The notes: generated by a model not told the origin, from the letters alone. A DNA stretch of 64,000 nt from Acidimicrobiales bacterium (GCA_051985455.1 JBPYEI010000048.1:19340-83339); one strand, 5' to 3'. Positions 29,503 to 57,132 are shown, counted from the first letter of the stretch. Numbers and translations are program-made.

Positions 29503-29511
29503 CGTGGAGAG

Positions 29512-29607
29512 CACACGGGAGCCTGGTGTGACCAGGCTGAGAGGGTGAGCTGACAGCTCCCGACCGTCGGACCTGATCCGGGTAATGCCGGCGCAGGGAG
29601 TCGTGGT
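29512..29607 (+). promoter_or_regulatory. TPP (THI-box) riboswitch
   Basis: CACGGGAGCC...GGCTGAGAGGG...ACCTGATCCGGGTAATGCCGGCGCAGGGAGTCGTG matches the conserved CUGAGA and ACCUGAUCNGGNUAAUGCCNGCGNAGGGA cores. It lies immediately upstream of thiO. Confidence 0.9.
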
Positions 29608-29630
29608 GGCAACCCTCTCGTCCCAGGACG

Positions 29631-30949
29631 ATGGACGGGAGCGATGATGCGAGCAGCCCCAGCGGCCGGTTCCGGCCCGACGGCGGGATGGTGCGCGACC
29701 CTGTGACGGCTGCTGGCCAGGCCGACCTCCAGGGGGACGGACCGCAGGCGAGCACATCCGCAGGCGGGAGCAGGGACGTGGTCGTCGTCGGCGGCGGGTG
29801 CATCGGGCTGGCCACGGCCTGGAGGGCTGCCGTGGCCGGGTTGCATGTCACCGTCGCCGACCCGCATCCCGGCGCGGGCGCGTCGTGGGCGGCGGCGGGC
29901 ATGCTGGCCCCCGTCACCGAGGTGCACTATGGCGAGGAAGCGCTGCTGCGCCTCAACCTGGCGTCGGCCGAGCGCTATCCGTCGTTCGTCGAGGAGCTCG
30001 AGCTGGATGCCGACGCGGCAGTCGGGTACCGGCGGTGTGGCACCCTGTTCGTGGCGGCCGATAGCGGCGACCGCGTCGTGCTCGAGGAGCTGCATCGCTT
30101 CCAGAGGTCGCTCGGTCTCGAGGCGGAGCTCATCCCTGGTCGAGAGTGCCGCTCGCTCGAGCCGATGCTCGCTCCCGGGATCAGGGGCGGCATCCTCGCT
30201 CCCGCGGATCACCAGGTCGACAGCCGACGCTTGACACCAGCACTGCTCACGGCGGCCACGCGTCGGGGGGTGGCTCTTCGTCGCAGCGCGGTGGCCGAGG
30301 TGGTCGTGGACGGAGGTCGCGCCACAGGTGTGCGACTCGAGGGCGGCGAGATCCTCGGCGCCGACGCCGTCGTGCTGGCGGCCGGGTGCTGGTCGAGCGC
30401 GATACCAGGCCCTCCAGCCGGCGCTCTCCCGGCGGTGCGCCCGGTGAAGGGCCAGGTCCTCCACCTCCGAGGACCAGTCGACCCACCCTTCCTGTCCCGC
30501 AACCTGCGAGGCGTCGCTCGTGGCTCGCACGTCTACCTCGTGCCCCGGCACGACGGGCGCGTCGTGCTCGGCGCCACGGTCGAGGAGAAGGGCTTCGACA
30601 CCGCCGTGACCGCCGAGGCCGCCTACACCCTGCTGCGCGACGCCCGTCAGCTCCTGCCGGGTGTCCTCGAGCTCGAGCTGGCCGAGACACACAGCGGCCT
30701 CCGGCCCGGGTCGATCGACAACGCTCCCCTTCTCGGTCCCTCGGCCGTACCCGGGCTCGTCATCGCCACCGGCCACTACCGCAACGGCGTGCTGCTGACG
30801 CCAGTGACCGCCAACGCGCTGGCGACCTACCTGTCGACCGGGCGCCTCGACGAGCACATCATGCCGTTCTCGCCGGCACGGTTCGTCACAACGGGCACGC
30901 CAAGCACGGCCGGCCCGCGAGGGCGGGCGCACTCCCGGGAGCTGACCCG

Positions 30950-30953
<4 letters not shown>
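29631..30953 (+). CDS. thiO: Glycine oxidase ThiO (FAD-dependent)
   Basis: Dinucleotide fold VVVVGGGCIGLATAW in a DAO-family sequence at the head of thiSGD. ATG 29688 is an alternative start. Confidence 0.85.
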
Positions 30954-48197: not shown

Positions 48198-49997
48198 CTA
48201 GGCCGGGAGGGTGTGGCGCACCGGAGACAGCCGCTCCATCGCGTGCTCGTAGCCCAGCTCGACGAGCTGGTCCAGGCGCTTCCAGTCGAAGAGGCCGAAC
48301 TGCTGCGAGGGCATGCGGACGTAGACGTCCGCGCGCTCGGCGGCCACGTCGACCGTGGTGGCACTGCTCAGCATCGCGCTGCGCACGAGGATCTCCGGGA
48401 GGCGCGGGGGCGAGCTCGTGCTGCCGTGGCGCAGCAGCGCCTCCGGGTCGGGCCGACCCAGGCCTGACCCGGGCGCCCGCAGGTAGCCGTCGGTACTCAC
48501 GTTGCAGGCGATGATGGCGCCCCGCTCCAACCGCTGCATATCGCCGGTAGGCAGGTTGTCGAGCACCCCACCGTCGCACAGCAGCTCACCCTCGTACGCG
48601 ATGGGCGGCGCGATCCCGGGGACCGCCATGCTCGTGCCCACCCACAACGCCAGGGGGCCGTGGTCGTGAACGACGGGCGCCCCGGTCGTCAGGTTGGTGG
48701 AGACACAGAAGAAGGTACGGCGCAGCTCCTCGATCTGCTGGTCCCCGAAGATGTCGGCCAGACGGGCAGCGAACTTTCGCCCTCGGATGAGCGACACCCG
48801 CGGCAGCGCGTAATCGTTCAGAAAGTTGTTGTTGACGAAGGTCTCCCGCGCCACGTGGGTCATCTCGACGCTGTCCAGGCCGAGGGCGAGGAGGGCCGAC
48901 ACGAAGGCACCCATGCTCGTTCCACCGGCCACGTCGATGGGCACTCGCAGCTCCTCGAGAGCCCGGATGAGCCCGATGTGGGCGAAGCCGCGGGCCCCAC
49001 CGCCTCCCAGCACCACGCCGACGCCGTGCCCGGCAACCTGGCGCGCCAGTGACGTCAGCTCCCCCTCGTCCCAGGGGTGGACGAAATAGCGGGCGCGCGC
49101 GCCCGTCACATCCGTCCACGCCCGCGTGTACGGCGAAGAGTCGCCTTCGGGCCGGAGGAACACCAGCTCCACCGGCGCCAGCAGCCCCAGCGAGCGAAGC
49201 TCCTGGAGGATCCGTACCGGTCTGGGCCGGGCGCTGGCCTCGGTCAGCACGAGCACACGATCGGCGTTGTGCAGGCAGCGAAGCGCCCAGGTGTCGCGGT
49301 CGCTGTCCGCCGCGTAGACCACGTAGCGATGCCGACCCTCGAGCTCGTTCATCCAGCCCGCCAGCCTGGTGCTGCCCTCGCCGTCCGAGAGCGAGACCTG
49401 TGATGCGCCGGAGCCGAGCGTGGCGTCGGCGTGCGCAGCGGTGATGAGGCGGGCGTCGGGCCATCCGGAGAGCCCCCGGACGAGCGCCTCGGCCAGCGCC
49501 GTGACGGGGAGGTGCGGTGAAGCGGGGATCACCGCCAGCGTCCCGTGGACCTCCGTGGCGCCTTGCACGCGGGCCCGGCCCTGTTCCCGCAGCCGGACGA
49601 CCATCAGACGGGTCAGCGCGCGCTGTACCACCGGGTGGTGGTCGAGGAAGTGAAGGAAGTCCGTCTTCTCGAAGCGGAGGAGGATGCTGTCGCGCACGGC
49701 GCGGATGGTCGAGGTCCTGGGCTCGCCCATCTGCACGCCGACCTCGCCGACAGGCTCCAGGCGACCGGCGTACCCGAGCAGCTCGCCGTCGGCGGTCTCC
49801 TGCAGTCGTCCCCGGACGACGACGTAGCAGTGGGTGGACGGATCGCCTTGTTTGTACAGGCGGGCGCCGCTACGGAGATCCTGTCTCTCAGCCAGCGCCG
49901 AGAGAGCGTCGAGCTCTTCCTTCTCCAGACCCGAGAACAGCGGCACCTCGGCCAGAACCGACCTGAGATCCACCAGCGACGGCAACGACGCCTTCAC
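48198..49997 (-). CDS. Cyclic-nucleotide-binding-domain patatin-like phospholipase (NTE-like)
   Basis: N-terminal cNMP-binding fold (FSGLEKEELDAL...YKQGDPSTHCYVVVRGRL). Patatin motifs GGGGARGFAHIG, GTSMGA and CDGGVLDNLP. GTG 49997 lies 9 nt after the alaS stop. Confidence 0.9.
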   Translation of the reverse strand: MKASLPSLVDLRSVLAEVPLFSGLEKEELDALSALAERQDLRSGARLYKQGDPSTHCYVVVRGRLQETADGELLGYAGRLEPVGEVGVQMGEPRTSTIRAVRDSILLRFEKTDFLHFLDHHPVVQRALTRLMVVRLREQGRARVQGATEVHGTLAVIPASPHLPVTALAEALVRGLSGWPDARLITAAHADATLGSGASQVSLSDGEGSTRLAGWMNELEGRHRYVVYAADSDRDTWALRCLHNADRVLVLTEASARPRPVRILQELRSLGLLAPVELVFLRPEGDSSPYTRAWTDVTGARARYFVHPWDEGELTSLARQVAGHGVGVVLGGGGARGFAHIGLIRALEELRVPIDVAGGTSMGAFVSALLALGLDSVEMTHVARETFVNNNFLNDYALPRVSLIRGRKFAARLADIFGDQQIEELRRTFFCVSTNLTTGAPVVHDHGPLALWVGTSMAVPGIAPPIAYEGELLCDGGVLDNLPTGDMQRLERGAIIACNVSTDGYLRAPGSGLGRPDPEALLRHGSTSSPPRLPEILVRSAMLSSATTVDVAAERADVYVRMPSQQFGLFDWKRLDQLVELGYEHAMERLSPVRHTLPA

Positions 49998-50006
49998 CCA
50001 CCAGCC

Positions 50007-52595
50007 TCATGTCAGCTCGAGGGTGGTGCGCACCAGGTCGAGGGCCTCGTCGATGCGCGCCGGGTCCCTGCCCCCGGCCAGGGCCACCTCGGGGCCCCTG
50101 CCCCCGCCCCCGCCCACCACCTTGGCCGCTCCGGCCAGCAGCTCGGCCGCCACCAGCCCGGCGTCGGGGGCCACGGCGGCGGCCAGCGCCACCCGCTTGC
50201 TGTCGGGCGAGCCGGCGAGGACGACAGCCCGGACGCCGTCCCTGTCCCGGGTGGCCAGGGCCAGCTCCCGCAGCTGGTCGGGGCCGAGGCCGTCCCGGCG
50301 GGCCACCACCAGGCCGTCCCGGGCGGCGCCGGCCAGGGCGGCGGCCTCGGTGCGCAGCCCGGCCGAGCGCAGGGCCTTGAGCTCGTCGCGGCTGGCGGCG
50401 GCCGAGGCCTGGAGGCGCTCGAGCGCCCCGGTCAGCTCGCCCGGAGTGGTCTGCAGGACCCCCGCCGCCTGGTCCAGGGTGTGCTCCTGGTCCCTGATGT
50501 AGCCGAGGGCCCCGGTGCCGGTGAGGGCCTCCAGGCGCCGGGTGCCCGAGCCGATGGAGGCCTCCGAGACGATCTGGATGGGCCCGATCATGCCCAGGGC
50601 GTCCACGTGCGTGCCCCCGCACAGCTCGACCGAGCCGTCGCCGGCCGACACCACCCGGACCTGGTCGCCGTACTTCTCGCCGAAGAAGGCGATGGCCCCC
50701 ATGTCCTGTGCCTCGGCCCAGCTGGTTTCGGTCACCACCACCGCCTCGTCGGCCAGGACCTGGGCGTTGACGAGGTCCTCCACGGCCTCCGACTGCTCAC
50801 GGGTCAGGGGAGCATGATGGCTGAAGTCGAAGCGCAGGCGGTCGGGAGCGACCAGCGAGCCCTGCTGTTTGACGTGGGGGCCGAGGACCTCCCGCAGGGC
50901 CCAGTGCAGCAGGTGGGTGCCGGTGTGGTTGCGCCTGATGGCCGCCCGGCGGGCGGCGTCGATGGCGGCGTCGGCGGCCTGGTCCGGGCTGATGGTGCCC
51001 TCGGTGAGGGTGGCGTGGTGCACGATCAGCCCCGGCAGGCCGTAGGTGGTATCGGTCACCTCGGCCATCCCGGTCTCCGTGGTGATCGTGCCGGTGTCGC
51101 CCACCTGACCCCCCGCCTCGGCGTAGAAGGGGGTGCGGTCCAGGACGATCTCCACCCCGTCGCCGGTCGAGGACTCGAGCACGCCCAGGACGGTGGCGGC
51201 CGAGCGGGCCTCGCCGTAGCCGGTGAAGGCGGTGGGCCCATGCGCCTCGAGCAGGTCCTTGTAGGCGGCGGTGTCGGCCCCCGCCCCCGCCCCCTTCGCC
51301 GCCTGGCGGGCCCGGGCCCGCTGGTCGGCCATGGCCGCCTCGAAGCCGGCGCGGTCCACCTCCACCCCCGCCTCGGCGGCGATCTCTGCGGTGAGCTCGA
51401 TGGGAAAGCCGTAGGTGTCGTGGAGACGGAAGGCCACCGGTCCGGCCAGGGTCCCGCCCGACACCTTGGCCAGCTCCTCCGCCAGCAGACCCTGGCCGGC
51501 GCGCAGGGTGCGCCCGAAGCGCTCCTCTTCTGCCGCCACCACGGCGGCGATGGTCTCGGCGTTGGTCGCCAGCTCGGGGTAGGCGGGGGCCATGGTGGCC
51601 ACCACCGCTTCCACCAGGGCCGGCCCCACCGCCTTGGTGGCCCCCAGCTGGGCCGCCCAGCGCAGGGCCCGGCGGATGATGCGCCGCAGCACGTAGCCCC
51701 GGGCTTCGTTGGCCGGTAGCACCCCGTCGGAGACGAGGAAGACCATGGCCCGGGCGTGGTCGGCCATGATGCGCAGGCCCACGTCGCCGCGCTCGTCGGC
51801 GCCGTAGGTCATGCCGGTGACGGCCTCGGCGGTGGCCACCACGGGGCGCAACACGTCGGTGTCGAACACCGAGTCGGCCCCGGTGAGCACGGGCAGGAGC
51901 CGCTCCAGCCCCGCCCCGGTGTCGATGTTCTTGGTTGGCAGCTCGCTCACGGTGCCGTCGGGGGCTCGGTTGTACTGCATGAAGACCAGGTTCCATAGCT
52001 CGACGTAGCGCTCGTCGGATCCCGCCGCCGGTCCTCCGCCAGCCCCGTACTTCTCGCCTTTGTCGAAGAAGATCTCCGAGTCGGTGCCGAACGGGCCCAC
52101 GTCGCCCATGGCCCACAGGTTGTCCTCGCCCATGGCCTGGACCCGGCCCGGAGGCACGCCCACCTTGTCCACCCAGATTCGCTCGGCGTCGGCGTCGGAC
52201 TCGTGCACGGTGACCCACAGCCGGTCCCCATCCAGCCCCAAGACCTCGGTGAGCAGCTCCCAGGCCATGGTGATGGCCTCGGGCTTGAAGTAGTCGCCCA
52301 GGCTGAAGTTGCCCAGCATCTCGAAGAAGGTGAGGTGGCGCGTGTCTCGGCCCACCACGTCGATGTCGTCGTGCTTGCCCCGCACCCGCACGCAGCGCTG
52401 CACCGAGGTGAGCCGAGGGTAGGGGGGTACCTGCTCGCCCAGGTAGAAGGGCTTGAGAGGCACCATGCCGGCCACGGTGAACATCACCGTCGGGTCGTTT
52501 GCCACCAGCGGGGCCGAGGGCAGGTAGTGATGGCCCCGCTCGACGAAGTAGTCCACGAAGGCCCGACGCAGCTGATTGGCGTTCGTGACGGTCAT
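50007..52595 (-). CDS. alaS: Alanine--tRNA ligase
   Basis: 862 aa: MTVTNANQLRRAFVDYFVERGHHYLPSAPLV..., a class II core, the editing-domain motif HTGTHLLH, and a C-terminal C-Ala domain. Confidence 0.97.
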   Translation of the reverse strand: MTVTNANQLRRAFVDYFVERGHHYLPSAPLVANDPTVMFTVAGMVPLKPFYLGEQVPPYPRLTSVQRCVRVRGKHDDIDVVGRDTRHLTFFEMLGNFSLGDYFKPEAITMAWELLTEVLGLDGDRLWVTVHESDADAERIWVDKVGVPPGRVQAMGEDNLWAMGDVGPFGTDSEIFFDKGEKYGAGGGPAAGSDERYVELWNLVFMQYNRAPDGTVSELPTKNIDTGAGLERLLPVLTGADSVFDTDVLRPVVATAEAVTGMTYGADERGDVGLRIMADHARAMVFLVSDGVLPANEARGYVLRRIIRRALRWAAQLGATKAVGPALVEAVVATMAPAYPELATNAETIAAVVAAEEERFGRTLRAGQGLLAEELAKVSGGTLAGPVAFRLHDTYGFPIELTAEIAAEAGVEVDRAGFEAAMADQRARARQAAKGAGAGADTAAYKDLLEAHGPTAFTGYGEARSAATVLGVLESSTGDGVEIVLDRTPFYAEAGGQVGDTGTITTETGMAEVTDTTYGLPGLIVHHATLTEGTISPDQAADAAIDAARRAAIRRNHTGTHLLHWALREVLGPHVKQQGSLVAPDRLRFDFSHHAPLTREQSEAVEDLVNAQVLADEAVVVTETSWAEAQDMGAIAFFGEKYGDQVRVVSAGDGSVELCGGTHVDALGMIGPIQIVSEASIGSGTRRLEALTGTGALGYIRDQEHTLDQAAGVLQTTPGELTGALERLQASAAASRDELKALRSAGLRTEAAALAGAARDGLVVARRDGLGPDQLRELALATRDRDGVRAVVLAGSPDSKRVALAAAVAPDAGLVAAELLAGAAKVVGGGGGRGPEVALAGGRDPARIDEALDLVRTTLELT

Positions 52596-52654
52596 CTGAC
52601 CAGCAGCCGATTCAGGTTGCCCTCGCAGTACTGAGAATGGAACATGGAATGTAG

Positions 52655-52728
52655 TGGAGACGACGGGATTCGAACCGACGTTTCTCCTGCCGAAACAGGC
52701 GCTCTAACCGGACCTGAGCTACGTCCCC
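52655..52728 (-). tRNA. Atypical tRNA-like gene: Ala-type acceptor stem (G3-U70, A73), non-canonical anticodon arm, weak T stem; isotype undetermined
   Basis: Minus strand: GGGGACG TA GCTC AGGTCCGGTTA GAGC G CCTG TTTCGG CAGG AGAAAC GTCGG TTCGAAT CCCGT CGTCTCC A. The acceptor arm, D arm and T loop are canonical. The anticodon arm forms only 4 bp closing a 6-nt loop. T-stem pairs are G-U, U-G, C-C, G-C, G-C. No CCA is encoded. Confidence 0.6.
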
Positions 52729-52871
52729 AAAGGATTCACTGTACCGCCGCTGCCTTTGATCCCTGGAGCCTCCCCCCTTTTGTCGCTCACCGACGCTCCT
52801 CACGTCGACTGGTGTCGCGGAGTTGGGATGGTACGCCAGTCTTGCCCGACCCGCAACGAGTACCCTGAATC

Positions 52872-54251
52872 GTGGCCCGTCTTCCTGTTCGGTTGGTCGG
52901 TGACGGGGTGGCGGTGCCCTGTGTCGATGGGCAGGAGCGGCCGTACATCTGTCTCGATGGCGCGGCCTCCACGGCCCCGATGCCCGCCGTGGCCGAGCGA
53001 GTGGCGGAGTTCCTGCCCTGGTACGGCAGCATCCACCGCGCCTCGGGATACAAGTCGAGAGTGGCCACGATGGCCTACGAGGATGCCCGTGCCGACGCGT
53101 TGGCGTTCGCCGGCAAGGCGGATACCTCGCACCTGGCCATCATCTGTCGCAACACGACCGACGCCATCAACCTCCTCGCCTACCGTCTGCGCTTGCGTCA
53201 GCAGGACGTCGTGGTCACGACGGTCGTCGAGCATCACGCCAACCTTCTGCCGTGGGGGCGGGTCGCCCGCCGCCGGTTCGTCGAGTGCGGACCCGAGGGC
53301 ACCTTCTCGGTCGGCGAGGTGTGCGCCGCGCTCGACGAGCGGCCGACGCCGCGTCTGCTGGCCGTCACCGGCGCCTCGAATGTCACCGGTTGGTTGCCGC
53401 CGCTCGACCTGATCCTCGATGCTGCCCACCAACGCGGCATCCCCGTCCTGGTGGACGCTGCCCAGCTCGCCCCGCACGTACCTCTGCCCGCCAACGCCGA
53501 CTTCCTGGCCTGGAGCGGCCACAAGATGTACGCGCCTTACGGCGCCGGCGTGCTGACCGGGCCCCGCGCCGTGTTCGACCAGGGCGAGCCGTTCCTGTTC
53601 GGGGGCGGAGCTGTCGACCTCGTCGACCTCGACGAGGTGGAGTGGACCGACCCCCCGGAGCGAGAAGAGGCCGGCTCCCCCAACGTCGTCGGTGCCGTGG
53701 CCATGGCCACGGCCATGCGGGAGCTCTCCGATATCGGCTGGCCCGCCATCCGGGAGCACGAGCAGGCCCTCGCCCAGCAGCTGCGGACCGGGCTGGCCGC
53801 CGTTCCGGGGGTGACGCTGCTGGGGCCGGCACTGCCGACCCCGACCCTCGCCGTGGCGAGCTTCGTCGTCGAGGAGGTCCCCCACGCCCTGGTCGCCGCA
53901 CGGTTGGCGGCGGAGTACGGCATCGGTGTGCGCCACGGATGCTTCTGCGCTCACCCGTACCTCATCCGACTGCTGGGCCTGTCGCACGACGAGCAAGCCC
54001 TCTACCGCCAGCATGTGCGCCAAGGTGATCGGCGTGTCATCCCGGGCGCCGTCAGGGCGAGCGCGACGATCTCGACGACGGCGGAGGAGGTCGAATTGTT
54101 CCTCGACGCCGTCGCCGACATCGCCAGTGGCAAACCCTCAGTGGTGCCCTTCGCCCAGGACGAGCACACCGGCGATTACTGGCCCGCGCTCGACATGCCG
54201 GGGTGGTCGGCCGCCGATCGCATCTTGGGCGCCAGCTGTGGCCGGGGCTGA
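52872..54251 (+). CDS. Class-V aminotransferase-fold PLP enzyme (cysteine desulfurase/selenocysteine lyase-like)
   Basis: 459 aa with VVTTVVEHHANLLPW and the PLP-Lys motif AWSGHKMYAPYGAGVL. It is divergent from the tRNA-like gene and alaS. Confidence 0.85.
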   Translation: MARLPVRLVGDGVAVPCVDGQERPYICLDGAASTAPMPAVAERVAEFLPWYGSIHRASGYKSRVATMAYEDARADALAFAGKADTSHLAIICRNTTDAINLLAYRLRLRQQDVVVTTVVEHHANLLPWGRVARRRFVECGPEGTFSVGEVCAALDERPTPRLLAVTGASNVTGWLPPLDLILDAAHQRGIPVLVDAAQLAPHVPLPANADFLAWSGHKMYAPYGAGVLTGPRAVFDQGEPFLFGGGAVDLVDLDEVEWTDPPEREEAGSPNVVGAVAMATAMRELSDIGWPAIREHEQALAQQLRTGLAAVPGVTLLGPALPTPTLAVASFVVEEVPHALVAARLAAEYGIGVRHGCFCAHPYLIRLLGLSHDEQALYRQHVRQGDRRVIPGAVRASATISTTAEEVELFLDAVADIASGKPSVVPFAQDEHTGDYWPALDMPGWSAADRILGASCGRG

Positions 54252-54402
54252 GGCCCGATTGCGTCCCAAATGGGGGTGCCCTTCCCGGAGGTGAGCAAGA
54301 GGGCGTATCCTGCAACCACCAGAAGACTGCCGCAGGTGGTGCAGCGATGTCGCTGGGGCTTCGGGCTCCGCCTTGTCGGTCGGCGTAAAGGGGGAGGGAC
54401 GC

Positions 54403-55569
54403 ATGAGCGACACCTCGCAAGGTGGCGGTTGGTGGTTGGCCTGGGACGGCAAGTGGTATCCGCCGGAGAGTCGGCCCGTCTCCCCGCCTCCCGCGTCACA
54501 CACGACGCCGAACGGGGATCAGGCGGCACCGCCGGCTGATACCACCGACGGCCGCGGGGGCGTGCAGACGAAGACCAAGCCGGCCAAGTCCAAGGAACGC
54601 GCAACGCAGCGGAGGGCGAAGCCGGAGGTCACGCCGGCTGCCGCGGTCACTCCGCTCATGCAGGCGGCGGTGGCCCGGTGGGGCCGGGAGTCCGCCAGTC
54701 CGTTCCTGCTGGGCGAGGACCGCGTCGTCGTCCGTCTGGCGGGCGCGGCCGTCGCCGGTTACGTGCGTCGGGGACGCTGGGCCGTCCTGGCCACCGACGT
54801 GGCCGCGCCTCCCTGGGCGCGAGAGCGAGTCCTCGACGAGCTGCTGGCGCGCCTGAAGCAGGATCGCCTGCGCCCCGTGTTCACCTGTGTCGCCGAATCC
54901 GAGCCCTACGAGAACCGGGGCATGTACGCCATGCCAATCGCAGAGGATGCCGTGATCCCGCTGAGCGACTTCAACCTCAAGGGCAAGCGGATGTCCAATA
55001 TCCGTCACAGTGTGAGCGCGGCCAAGCGGGCCGGCCTCACGATGGTTCCCTGGTCCAATGACCTGGCCGAGGGCGTGGCCGAGGTCTCCAGGGCCTGGCT
55101 GTCCACCAAGCACGGCGGGGAGATGGGCTTCACCCTCGGTCGCTTCGACCCCGAGGAGATCGCCTCCACCGACTGTCGGGTGGCTTTGAACTCAGAGGGC
55201 AAGCCGGTGGGCTTCGTCACCTGGCACCACCACGACGGTGGGCGCGGCCGGGTGCTCGACATCATGCGTCGATCTCCGGAGGCGCCAAATCCCACGATCG
55301 ACTTCCTCATCGCCGAGAGCCTGGTCGGTTTCGCCGAGGCCGGACTGCGTGAGGGCAGCTTGGCCTGCGTGCCCCTCTCGAGGGGCAAGATGGCCGAGCG
55401 GTTGTACCCGACGCGGTCGCTGCGGCGGTACAAGGACAAGTTCAACCCCACCTGGGAGCCCCGATGGTTGGTCGTGCCGAGCCGAATGCATCTCCCAGGC
55501 GGTCTGGCGGCCGTTGCCCGCAGTTACATCCCGGGGGGCCTGCGACAGGCCATCCGCGGCAGCTCCTGA
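54403..55569 (+). CDS. Soluble DUF2156 protein (MprF/LysX C-terminal aminoacyl-tRNA-dependent transferase domain) with a W-rich N-motif
   Basis: ATG 54403 follows GGGGGAGGG. The N-terminus GGGWWLAWDGKWYPP is followed by a Pro/Lys-rich linker. The domain has KGKRMSNIRHSVSAAKRAGL, GRGRVLDIMRRSPEAPNPTIDFLIAE and LRRYKDKFNPTWEPRWLVVP, the FK-x-KF-x-P-x-W-x-PRY signature of aminoacyl-PG synthase domains. No TM helices. Confidence 0.85.
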   Translation: MSDTSQGGGWWLAWDGKWYPPESRPVSPPPASHTTPNGDQAAPPADTTDGRGGVQTKTKPAKSKERATQRRAKPEVTPAAAVTPLMQAAVARWGRESASPFLLGEDRVVVRLAGAAVAGYVRRGRWAVLATDVAAPPWARERVLDELLARLKQDRLRPVFTCVAESEPYENRGMYAMPIAEDAVIPLSDFNLKGKRMSNIRHSVSAAKRAGLTMVPWSNDLAEGVAEVSRAWLSTKHGGEMGFTLGRFDPEEIASTDCRVALNSEGKPVGFVTWHHHDGGRGRVLDIMRRSPEAPNPTIDFLIAESLVGFAEAGLREGSLACVPLSRGKMAERLYPTRSLRRYKDKFNPTWEPRWLVVPSRMHLPGGLAAVARSYIPGGLRQAIRGSS

Positions 55570-55581
55570 GGGGTCCGCTCG

Positions 55582-57132
55582 ATGTCTGCTCAACCGCCCG
55601 AGGTCGGAGCGGCACCCGGGGCGGCGCCGCCGACGATCGTAGGTTCGCCTACCCCGCAGGTCGGCCCGCCTCGAGCCTCCCGGCGGCGGTTCTGGCCGAC
55701 CGGCTTTCGGTTCCATCCGCCGCTCATCACCGTGATAGCCATCGCCGGCGTCGTCTCCACCGCGGTACGGACGGGGGTGTTCCACCACAACATCGCTCAG
55801 ACCGTCGTCTACCAGTACGGGTACGACGGCCGGCAGATCCAGGCCGGGCACTGGTCAACGCTGTTCACCAGCCAGCTGCTGACCCGCAACAGCTTCATGA
55901 CTGCCTCGATCTGCCTGTCGCTGCTCGTGTTTCTGGGCGCGTACGAGGCGCTGGCAGGCAGCTGGCGTGCGGCAATCGTGCTCGTCGTGTGCAGCGTGGC
56001 CGGACTTCTCATCGTCCAGGTCGCGCTGGGGCTGGGCAACGTGCTCGGGAGCACGTGGGCGGAGAAGGAGGTGGGCGTCCTCGACTTCGGTGCCTCTGCC
56101 ATCACTGCGGGCGCGGGGGGAGCTGTGGTCGCTCTGCTGCGGTGGCGATGGCTCCGCGTGGTTGGGGTCCTCATCATCCTCAGCGGCCTCGTAGTCCACA
56201 ACCAGCTGGCCGACTGGGAGCACCTAGTCGCCTTCAGCTCCGGCTACGGGCTGGGTCTGATCCTCGGGCCCAAGCCGGATGTCGCCAGCGTGGAGACCGG
56301 GGCCCGACAGTGGGGGTCCCCGTTTCTGTGGGCACTGATTGCGCCCGCGGCCGTGATCGGTGTCTTCGGAGCCGGCGCTTTCGTCCCCTCGAACGCGGGG
56401 ACCAACTCCGCCCAGGTGATCGACACGACCTACCCGTCGGCGGCGCTACACGCGAACCGGCGCGTCCTGGTCGTCCTGCCGAAGGGTTACGGGCAATCGA
56501 ACCAGCGCTACCCCGTTGTCCAGCTGCTGCAGGGTACCGGCGGTCTCGACGAGGTGGTCGGCTCTCTGAACGTTCCCCAGCTCTCCACCCAGTCGAAGAC
56601 CCCGTTCATCGCTGTGGCCCCTGACGGGACCGGACCGGTGGTCAGTGAGAGCGACTTCGCCAACACCAGCCGCCAGCCGATGGGCACGGCGACTGGGCCA
56701 GAGCTCCGCCAGTGGGTCGACTCGCACTACGCGACCAACGGGACCTGGTACGTCACAGGGCTCTCCGAGGGCGGCAATGGTGCCGCGTACCTGCCGACCC
56801 TCTCTCCCGGTGCCTACCAGGCGACGTGCCCCATGAGCGCCTTCTTCACCGCCCAGTCCCCTGCCTTCGATGGCCAGTCTGCAGCCGTAAAGCAGGCCGG
56901 ATCGCCGATCCTCCACGTCTCGAAGACGGGCCCGCGCACCTTGCTCATCTCCGGGGCGAGCGATCGGGAGCTGGTCGACGCGGCCCATCAGTACACCGCA
57001 GCGATGAACAAGGTCGGGCAACCGAACAACGGCCTGATCCTCAATCCGGGCGGGCACGAGCTGCCGGTCTGGACGCTGGGGATCAAGCAGTGCCTGGGGT
57101 ACTTCCTCCCGACCTCGGGGTTGGGCAAGTAG
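55582..57132 (+). CDS. Fusion: ~7-TM rhomboid-like membrane domain + C-terminal alpha/beta-hydrolase (esterase) domain
   Basis: The membrane half carries HWSTLFTSQLL, a GASAITAGAGG (GxSx) helix and a WEHLVAFSSGYGLG (H...G) helix. The C-half has RRVLVVLPKGYGQSNQRYPVVQLLQG and a nucleophile elbow GLSEGG (GxSxG). The rhomboid assignment is by eye. Confidence 0.75.
   Translation: MSAQPPEVGAAPGAAPPTIVGSPTPQVGPPRASRRRFWPTGFRFHPPLITVIAIAGVVSTAVRTGVFHHNIAQTVVYQYGYDGRQIQAGHWSTLFTSQLLTRNSFMTASICLSLLVFLGAYEALAGSWRAAIVLVVCSVAGLLIVQVALGLGNVLGSTWAEKEVGVLDFGASAITAGAGGAVVALLRWRWLRVVGVLIILSGLVVHNQLADWEHLVAFSSGYGLGLILGPKPDVASVETGARQWGSPFLWALIAPAAVIGVFGAGAFVPSNAGTNSAQVIDTTYPSAALHANRRVLVVLPKGYGQSNQRYPVVQLLQGTGGLDEVVGSLNVPQLSTQSKTPFIAVAPDGTGPVVSESDFANTSRQPMGTATGPELRQWVDSHYATNGTWYVTGLSEGGNGAAYLPTLSPGAYQATCPMSAFFTAQSPAFDGQSAAVKQAGSPILHVSKTGPRTLLISGASDRELVDAAHQYTAAMNKVGQPNNGLILNPGGHELPVWTLGIKQCLGYFLPTSGLGK

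Follow-up and report, generated by a model that had tools for sequence, protein, structure and literature searches.

A tRNA-Ala-like gene without an anticodon loop precedes alaS and adjoins a predicted MprF-type synthase and esterase gene pair in one clade of Acidimicrobiales

Introduction

Alanyl-tRNA synthetase (AlaRS) is the textbook example of a synthetase that ignores the anticodon: G3:U70 together with A73 forms its identity set, and acceptor minihelices that lack an anticodon are charged by the enzyme. There is also precedent for synthetase genes that are controlled via their cognate tRNA, as with the thrS operator and T-box leaders; the operator of Escherichia coli thrS mimics the anticodon arm only and overlaps the ribosome binding site. 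Here, we describe a 64,000-nucleotide (nt) stretch of DNA from an Acidimicrobiales bacterium (GCA_051985455.1 JBPYEI010000048.1:19340-83339; hereafter, the window, with positions counted from its first letter) in which a tRNA-Ala-like gene without an anticodon loop lies upstream of alaS. Diverging from these two genes is a cluster that encodes a SufS-like enzyme, a predicted MprF-type aminoacyl-tRNA transferase with a DUF2156 domain, and a polytopic membrane protein with an esterase domain. The original prediction for this locus was that the tRNA-like gene, alaS, the transferase, the esterase, and a phospholipase gene next to alaS may make up a single alanylation system.

Like the thrS operator and T-box leaders, the window element would lie in the leader of a synthetase gene and is related to the cognate tRNA. 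Unlike the thrS operator, it mimics the whole tRNA except the anticodon and is located 59 nt from the start codon, and unlike T-box leaders, it has no T-box match in Rfam. As an RNA that is tRNA-shaped and stands outside normal decoding, it can also be compared with the non-proteinogenic tRNA-Gly of Staphylococcus aureus, the tRNA domain of transfer-messenger RNA (tmRNA), and tRNAOther of Bacillus cereus, which is a pseudo-tRNA (PMC3399842). With tmRNA, it shares the G3:U70 alanine identity and the lack of an anticodon; unlike tmRNA, it has no mRNA-like part. It differs from all three in being a 74-nt cloverleaf with a UUCG tetraloop at a fixed position upstream of alaS. Our literature searches turned up neither a report of a tRNA-like element before alaS nor one of tRNA-Ala genes that lack an anticodon.

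For the second part of the locus, the closest described system is found in Corynebacterium. Two reports describe an operon formed by AlaDAGS and the putative esterase PesT, and, more generally, a pairing of aminoacyl-phosphatidylglycerol synthase (aaPGS) genes with the hydrolases AhyD or VirJ (PMC6103681; PMC10580965). The membrane domain of AlaDAGS has six helices (PMC10580965). As in AlaDAGS-PesT, an actinobacterial DUF2156/LPG_synthase_C gene is followed in the window by an esterase gene, here after a gap of 12 nt, and the motifs of the aaPGS catalytic domain are conserved. Unlike AlaDAGS and MprF, the window synthase has no membrane or flippase domain, and unlike in AlaDAGS-PesT, a rhomboid-like polytopic domain, not LPG_synthase_TM, is fused to the esterase. 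We regard the window pair as analogous to AlaDAGS-PesT in gene order.

Results

Structure of the tRNA-like gene

ARAGORN reported a "tRNA-???" with a two-base anticodon at 52654-52728(-), and the Rfam tRNA family (RF00005), which has a gathering score of 29, matched 52655-52728(-) at 43.8 bits; over the whole window, the E-value of this match was 5e-6. Read directly, the RNA is GGGGACG UA GCUC AGGUCCGGUUA GAGC G CCUGU-UUCG-GCAGG AGAA ACG[UC]GG UUCGAAU CCCGU CGUCUCC A. Its acceptor stem has 7 bp, including G1-C72, G2-C71, G3:U70, and G4-C69, and A73 is present. The RNA retains U8, A14, G18G19 in the D arm, A21, and the canonical UUCGAAU T loop; its anticodon arm is a 5-bp stem closed by a UUCG tetraloop. 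A strict pattern written for this element occurred once in the window, compared with 0.00 occurrences expected from shuffled sequences.

At the Rfam gathering and E-value thresholds, tRNA was the only RNA family detected at the element, with no T-box and no riboswitch. The Rfam scan also gave one CRISPR-DR20 match, which we judged to be due to chance. We rejected an identification of the element as tmRNA, as ARAGORN calls none.

Among the eight distinct sequences of the gene that we recovered from related loci and the window, none has the 7-nt anticodon loop with an alanine anticodon; all eight carry the 4-nt UUCG instead, and the AlaRS identity elements G3:U70 and A73 are invariant in all eight. 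The T stem is irregular in every sequence: two pyrimidines (UC, CC, or CU) bulge out between pairs 51-63 and 52-62. A loop of 4 nt makes decoding impossible, and the features of the sequence indicate that the gene is most likely a non-decoding paralog of tRNA-Ala. The earlier claim of a non-canonical tRNA with alanine identity is thereby borne out: the decoding loop is missing and the identity elements are present. Both the UUCG tetraloop, found where an anticodon loop would normally be, and the bulged T stem set the gene apart from an ordinary decoding tRNA.

Conservation and distribution of the tRNA-like gene

The tRNA-like gene is present at 12 loci, namely the window and L005, L006-L008, L012, L045, L047, L160-L162, and L164 (L numbers denote loci). 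At all 12, it is located on the alaS strand, ~60-70 nt upstream of alaS. The carriers represent about eight lineages, with AlaRS sequences 77-89% identical to that of the window.

The eight distinct sequences have 91% identity per column. In pairwise comparisons, the gene is 88-97% identical. The corresponding values are 54-83% for the 100 nt upstream, 66-88% for the spacer downstream, and 84-96% over the initial 600 nt of alaS. Across the eight sequences, 98.3% of the cells in the cloverleaf stems are paired, compared with 41-61% when the partners are slid. The stem of the anticodon arm changes between lineages from C-G to U-G, from U-A to U-G, and from G-C to G-U. Beyond this stem, the sequences differ only at the first T-stem pair, where A-U is replaced by G-U, and at the two bulged positions. 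All of the stem changes are wobble-compatible. The stem capped by UUCG is shorter in the window (5 bp) than in the other carriers (6 bp), and CCA is encoded at the gene in L012, L047, and L160. These patterns of conservation and pairing show a genuine gene that is maintained by selection. The copy in L045 has three mismatches, which call for caution since the L045 assembly likely contains indel errors. At L012, L045, L161, and L162, alaS or the Aminotran_5 (SufS-like), DUF2156, or patatin gene appears in frame-shifted TBLASTN pieces or split gene calls, and indel errors are likely in all four assemblies.

AlaRS homologues 75-100% identical to the window protein form a tight clade with at least three sublineages, and all other Acidimicrobiales sequences are at most 63% identical. 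Based on these AlaRS comparisons, the carriers of the tRNA-like gene belong to one family-level clade of Acidimicrobiales. Using ARAGORN, we identified no tRNA or tRNA-like gene upstream of alaS in any of 80 metagenomic alaS loci with 46-61% identity, and none of those 80 loci has relatives of the Aminotran_5, DUF2156, esterase, or patatin genes near alaS. A covariance model (R1) likewise detected no tRNA-like gene in the first 21 of the 80 loci (L080-L100) or in loci with DUF2156 relatives from outside the clade.

We also scanned the strict element pattern over one genome per species, covering 185,579 species. The scan gave 68 matching stretches, of which the relevant ones are L012, L045, L047, and two loci in metagenome-assembled genomes of Microbacteriaceae. 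Most of the other matches proved to be canonical tRNAs, either from bacteria of the Candidate Phyla Radiation (CPR) with short variable loops or Opitutae tRNA-Arg-UCG, and further matches were 3' ends of Nitriliruptoraceae tmRNA. At the two Microbacteriaceae loci, L015 121-193(-) and L075 2243-2314(-), stand-alone tRNA-Ala-like genes have G3:U70, A73, a 6-bp stem with UUCG, and imperfect T stems. The gene in L015 is next to genes for a phosphodiesterase and a response regulator, and that in L075 is next to genes for an AMP-binding enzyme, a ComB-like protein, and MsrB; neither gene adjoins alaS or DUF2156, and no DUF2156 gene is present in the 3.8 kb (L015) and 8 kb (L075) of sequence covered. 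Their similarity to the window element suggests that tRNA-Ala paralogs without an anticodon form a broader class in Actinomycetota.

In viral contigs, the only matches were canonical tRNA-Arg and one phage tRNA-like group, neither with alanine identity. The phage group, found at L172 6608-6659(+), L177 9963-10014(-), and L178 11392-11443(-), has an arm of ATCTGT-TCG-ACAGAT with a seemingly shortened loop and is without a clear alanine acceptor stem.

The alaS leader and spacer

Reading the conserved sequence ~100 nt upstream of the tRNA-like gene by eye, we identified a promoter-like element, TTGCGG-17 nt-TACCAT, at 52856-52828(-). The hairpin of the leader, 5' of the tRNA-like gene (52729-52830, -), shows four double compensatory changes between the window and other lineages. 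Many of its pairs on the alaS-sense strand are G.U and would become A.C on the opposite strand. A conserved G-rich run, AAAAGGGGGGAGG, adjoins the hairpin.

Between the tRNA-like gene and alaS, no terminator was predicted, and no stable fold was found in the spacer relative to shuffled sequence (z-scores of 0.2 to 2.2). The spacer contains a conserved block of 24 nt, ACUGCGAGGGCAACCUGAAUCGGC, at 52606-52629(-); this block lies too far 5' to be a Shine-Dalgarno sequence and is predicted to be unstructured. We infer that promoter, structured leader, tRNA-like gene, spacer, and alaS form one transcription unit. The identity elements of the tRNA-like RNA and its placement before alaS point to a ligand of AlaRS, and the RNA is most likely recognized by this enzyme and co-transcribed with alaS.

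The DUF2156 synthase

The protein encoded by the DUF2156 gene matches PF09924 (LPG_synthase_C/DUF2156) with E = 1.3e-48. In alignments with PDB sequences, it matches AlaPGS of Pseudomonas aeruginosa (4v34; E = 2e-29) and MprF (9j8q; E = 1.4e-29), and it keeps the motifs GF(T/S)LGRF, LD(I/L)MR..P.AP, and KDKF.P.WEPR. The protein has no hydrophobic segment and no match to PF03706. Structures of Ala-specific and Lys-specific aaPGS enzymes score equally against it. From these alignments, the DUF2156 protein is a credible MprF-type aminoacyl-tRNA transferase without the membrane domain, and together with the paired hydrolase gene, the matches to 4v34 and 9j8q agree with the function originally predicted for it.

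Within the clade, the DUF2156 protein has a clade-specific N-terminal extension of ~55 amino acids (aa; window 54403-54690, residues 1-95) in which a WWLAWDGKWYPPE motif precedes one Pro-rich and one Lys/Arg-rich segment. Homologues that are at most 69% identical, and that have no tRNA-like neighbor, lack such an extension. We identified ~90 related DUF2156 clusters with 46-86% identity, and every source name that bears a taxon is Acidimicrobiales. The DUF2156 gene stands alone in L001, L002, and L009. In L165 (690-2754), a DUF2156 gene with 69% identity is followed by a separate gene for a 300-aa LPG_synthase_TM protein (PF03706), an arrangement that looks like MprF split over two genes.

The esterase partner

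Outside the clade, a DUF2156 gene is followed by an Esterase gene (513-555 aa) in L003/L004 (51%), L167/L168 (60%), and the P0084 contig (49%). These pairs occur in unrelated neighborhoods with neither alaS nor the tRNA-like gene, which indicates that the adjacency to alaS arose as one evolutionary event. The esterase family comprises ~90 clusters of ~500 aa with the same two-domain layout, and all proteins that the homologue search returned were from Acidimicrobiales or Jatrophihabitans; 14 contigs in the esterase match list coincide in size with contigs in the DUF2156 list. Based on these gene contexts, DUF2156-esterase is an independent conserved pair across Acidimicrobiales.

AlphaFold predicted the esterase protein as seven helices followed by an alpha/beta hydrolase, with a mean confidence (pLDDT) of 86.7. 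The hydrolase domain (residues ~278-516) is esterase-D/CE1-like, with structure matches to feruloyl esterases and esterase D (E ~1e-12), and Ser395 (GLSxGG) and His492 are invariant in the family. The membrane domain covers about residues 44-270. Against this domain, PF01694 (Rhomboid) scored 17.4 bits with a cut-off of 22.6 (E = 0.005) and covered profile positions 2-141 of 143. The model of the domain has a pLDDT of 73, and its best fold match is GlpG (probability 0.96-0.97, template modeling score [TM] by target 0.54-0.58, E ~0.5). Ser172 (GAS) is invariant, and His214 (DWEH) is nearly invariant. A family profile of the membrane domain found no rhomboid among PDB sequences. We therefore call the predicted domain rhomboid-like and stop short of counting it as a proven rhomboid. 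The seven helices and the basic N-terminus predict a topology that would probably place the esterase domain outside the cytoplasm.

Neighboring genes and locus layout

The alaS gene is full length and encodes both the editing domain and, at the C-terminus, DHHA1. Downstream of alaS, L164 has ruvX, yceG/mltG, and aroE, and L007 has ruvX, which corresponds to the canonical actinobacterial order; by this order, alaS is an ordinary housekeeping gene and not a dedicated paralog. In the window, L006, L045, L160, and L163, the next gene after alaS is a patatin gene, which L007 and L164 lack. Its presence thus varies among close relatives, as expected for a variable insertion and not for a component of a module. 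The proposal that the phospholipase is part of a system is therefore not sustained, as L007 and L164 carry ruvX after alaS in place of patatin.

The SufS-like protein has the PLP-Lys (SGHK) and Cys (HGCFCAHP) motifs. Against TIGR01979 (SufS), it scored 263.8 bits with a cut-off of 475; by the family criterion, it belongs to Aminotran_5 in general. Its gene adjoins alaS and DUF2156 in this clade alone, is missing from the outgroup DUF2156 contexts, and is probably a bystander.

The six features listed in the original prediction, with their strands, coordinates, and spacings, were all recovered as described (Table 1). The window has a G+C content of 70%, and its proteins have matches in metagenome-assembled genomes labeled Acidimicrobiales. 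Elsewhere in the window, a thiamine pyrophosphate (TPP) riboswitch (RF00059) was detected at 29505-29616(+) with 61.8 bits, directly 5' of an open reading frame at 29631-30953.

Table 1. Features of the alaS and DUF2156 region, with positions in the window
Feature	Position	Strand	Remarks
Protein with cNMP_binding, NTE_Ploop, and Patatin domains (NTE-type patatin phospholipase)	48198-49997	-	9 nt after alaS
alaS, alanine-tRNA ligase, 862 aa	50007-52595	-	TIGR00344, 821 bits; tRNA-synt_2c, tRNA_SAD, and DHHA1 domains
Spacer of 59 nt between tRNA-like gene and alaS start	52596-52654	-	Holds the conserved 24-nt block
Anticodon-less tRNA-Ala-like gene	52655-52728	-	Rfam tRNA match and direct reading
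Promoter-like element and leader of ~90 nt with hairpin	52729-52856	-	Conservation, read by eye
SufS-like class-V pyridoxal phosphate (PLP) enzyme (Aminotran_5)	52872-54251	+	143 nt from tRNA-like gene
Predicted MprF-type transferase, LPG_synthase_C (DUF2156) domain only	54403-55569	+	Starts 151 nt after Aminotran_5 gene
Protein with ~7 hydrophobic helices, then PF00756 Esterase domain	55582-57132	+	12 nt after DUF2156 gene

Discussion

In every clade member with both sides visible (L006-L008, L012, L047, and L160-L162), the tRNA-like gene and alaS are located beside the Aminotran_5-DUF2156-esterase cluster, and parts of this arrangement are present in L005 and L164. The expectation that the neighborhood would be conserved thus held within the clade and failed at the 80 alaS loci with at most 61% identity, none of which shows it. 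The same division applies to the proposed single alanylation system. Its parts are real and their adjacency recurs within the clade, but alaS is a housekeeping gene, the patatin gene is variable, and the DUF2156-esterase pair is independent. Since the pair occurs independently elsewhere, what ties the tRNA-like gene to DUF2156 is one juxtaposition specific to this lineage. Overall, the comparison of loci gives partial support to the original prediction, with two adjacent units in one clade, and stops short of a single system.

The first unit would be a housekeeping alaS with a long structured leader that holds a tRNA-Ala-derived RNA. This RNA would be transcribed with alaS from the conserved upstream promoter and excised by RNase P and 3' processing, and AlaRS would bind and probably alanylate it. 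Its role would be tied to AlaRS: either processing or expression of the alaS mRNA would be coupled to AlaRS occupancy, or the RNA would serve as a non-translating ligand. The second unit would be a lipid-aminoacylation pair: an MprF-type synthase in the cytoplasm and, in the membrane, a rhomboid-like protein with an esterase domain. The SufS-like and patatin genes would be neighbors of these units and not components. An AlaRS-directed role of the tRNA-like RNA within the alaS transcription unit is the reading that we favor, tentatively and at somewhat less than an even chance. A role tied to alaS is supported by the fixed position in the alaS leader, by the conserved leader architecture, and by the precedent of the thrS operator and T-box leaders. 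The intact elbow, the encoded CCA in three lineages, and the stand-alone Microbacteriaceae genes point to an RNA that is excised, acts in trans, and is probably charged.

Several observations weigh against an AlaRS-directed role. The complete tRNA architecture exceeds what an AlaRS-binding operator needs, and the Microbacteriaceae analogues, which are located away from alaS, favor a trans-acting RNA. The tRNA-like gene does not overlap the alaS ribosome binding site, and with 59 nt between it and the start codon, simple occlusion of that site is unlikely. An automatic scan for sigma-70 promoters found nothing. In the tRNA-like gene, no pair differs between lineages at both of its positions; selection is thus argued from strong sequence conservation and structural compatibility, not from covariation. 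The DUF2156 cluster adjoins the tRNA-like gene in every carrier lineage with that side visible, so the two may be functionally linked. Finally, L163, with an AlaRS that is nested in the clade and 85% identical to those of L160 and L164, has an alaS without the leader, the tRNA-like gene, or the spacer (L163 3644-4430), so alaS can be expressed without the tRNA-like gene. In place of these elements are unrelated genes that end in an AbiEi_4-like gene, and homology restarts at the alaS start codon. We found no duplicated tRNA 3' half beside alaS in L163, which indicates that the leader was replaced and not split by an island inserted at a tRNA site.

The strongest alternative is that the tRNA-like RNA, charged by AlaRS, is a private alanine carrier for the DUF2156 transferase, with the esterase trimming or turning over the product. 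This alternative would account for the strict co-occurrence within the clade, where the divergent Aminotran_5-DUF2156-esterase cluster adjoins the gene in the window, L006-L008, L012, L047, and L160-L162. It would also explain why the elements for processing and charging are kept and decoding alone is lost, and it fits the CCA encoded in L012, L047, and L160. The 2-nt bulge in the T stem could weaken binding of EF-Tu, and a basic N-terminal extension has arisen on the clade DUF2156 proteins that is not present in relatives with no tRNA-like gene. In S. aureus, a non-proteinogenic tRNA-Gly serves FemXAB, and aaPGS enzymes recognize chiefly the acceptor end of the tRNA. Yet the juxtaposition represents a single evolutionary event, and DUF2156-esterase pairs occur elsewhere without a nearby tRNA-like gene. 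The tRNA-like gene is in the predicted transcription unit of alaS, not of DUF2156, and the Microbacteriaceae analogues have no DUF2156 in the 3.8 kb (L015) and 8 kb (L075) covered. Lys-specific and Ala-specific structures score alike against the DUF2156 protein and so favor neither amino acid. We consider a dedicated carrier unlikely and the fuller claim that a charged, anticodon-less tRNA-Ala paralog is the private alanine donor to an MprF-type transferase without a membrane domain somewhat less probable again. A dedicated donor and an AlaRS-directed role are not mutually exclusive.

A further alternative is that the tRNA fold serves processing or structure only, as an RNase P/RNase Z signal or a 5' stabilizer in the maturation of the alaS mRNA, and that the RNA is never charged and AlaRS has no specific role. 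The position in a long terminator-free leader and the intact elbow, which is read by RNase P, are consistent with this explanation, and tRNA-like processing signals are found in other transcripts, such as mascRNA in MALAT1. RNase P does not need the AlaRS identity set, however, and the gene keeps this set in its invariant G3:U70, A73, and first four acceptor pairs; moreover, the location before the gene for the cognate synthetase would be a coincidence. We regard a purely structural role as improbable. Decay of a tRNA-Ala pseudogene, or a rearrangement scar with neighbors clustered by chance, is very improbable. In its favor, the gene is confined to one clade, in a rearrangement-prone region (patatin insertion; AbiEi island in L163), and its L045 copy has three mismatches, though in an assembly that also shows frameshifts, but at 77-89% AlaRS identity it is conserved beyond its flanks and about as well as the alaS coding sequence, the loop was swapped precisely for a stable UUCG tetraloop with pairing kept through the change between a 5-bp and a 6-bp stem, and the gene is full length, not a 3'-half att scar.

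If the tRNA-like RNA does act as a dedicated alanine donor, the locus would represent the first case in bacteria of lipid or envelope aminoacylation served by a dedicated tRNA-like carrier, and other Actinomycetota, Microbacteriaceae among them, may have related carriers that stand alone. The conserved gene pair, with a predicted soluble synthase of the MprF type beside a rhomboid-like/esterase protein, would widen the known architectures of lipid aminoacylation, in an uncultured actinobacterial order. A selected tRNA-Ala that is free of an anticodon and has an intact acceptor end and elbow would be a direct natural counterpart of the laboratory experiments on minihelices. Either role, whether autoregulation of alaS or the supply of alanine for non-ribosomal chemistry, would add a new type of tRNA-like RNA to those of bacteria.

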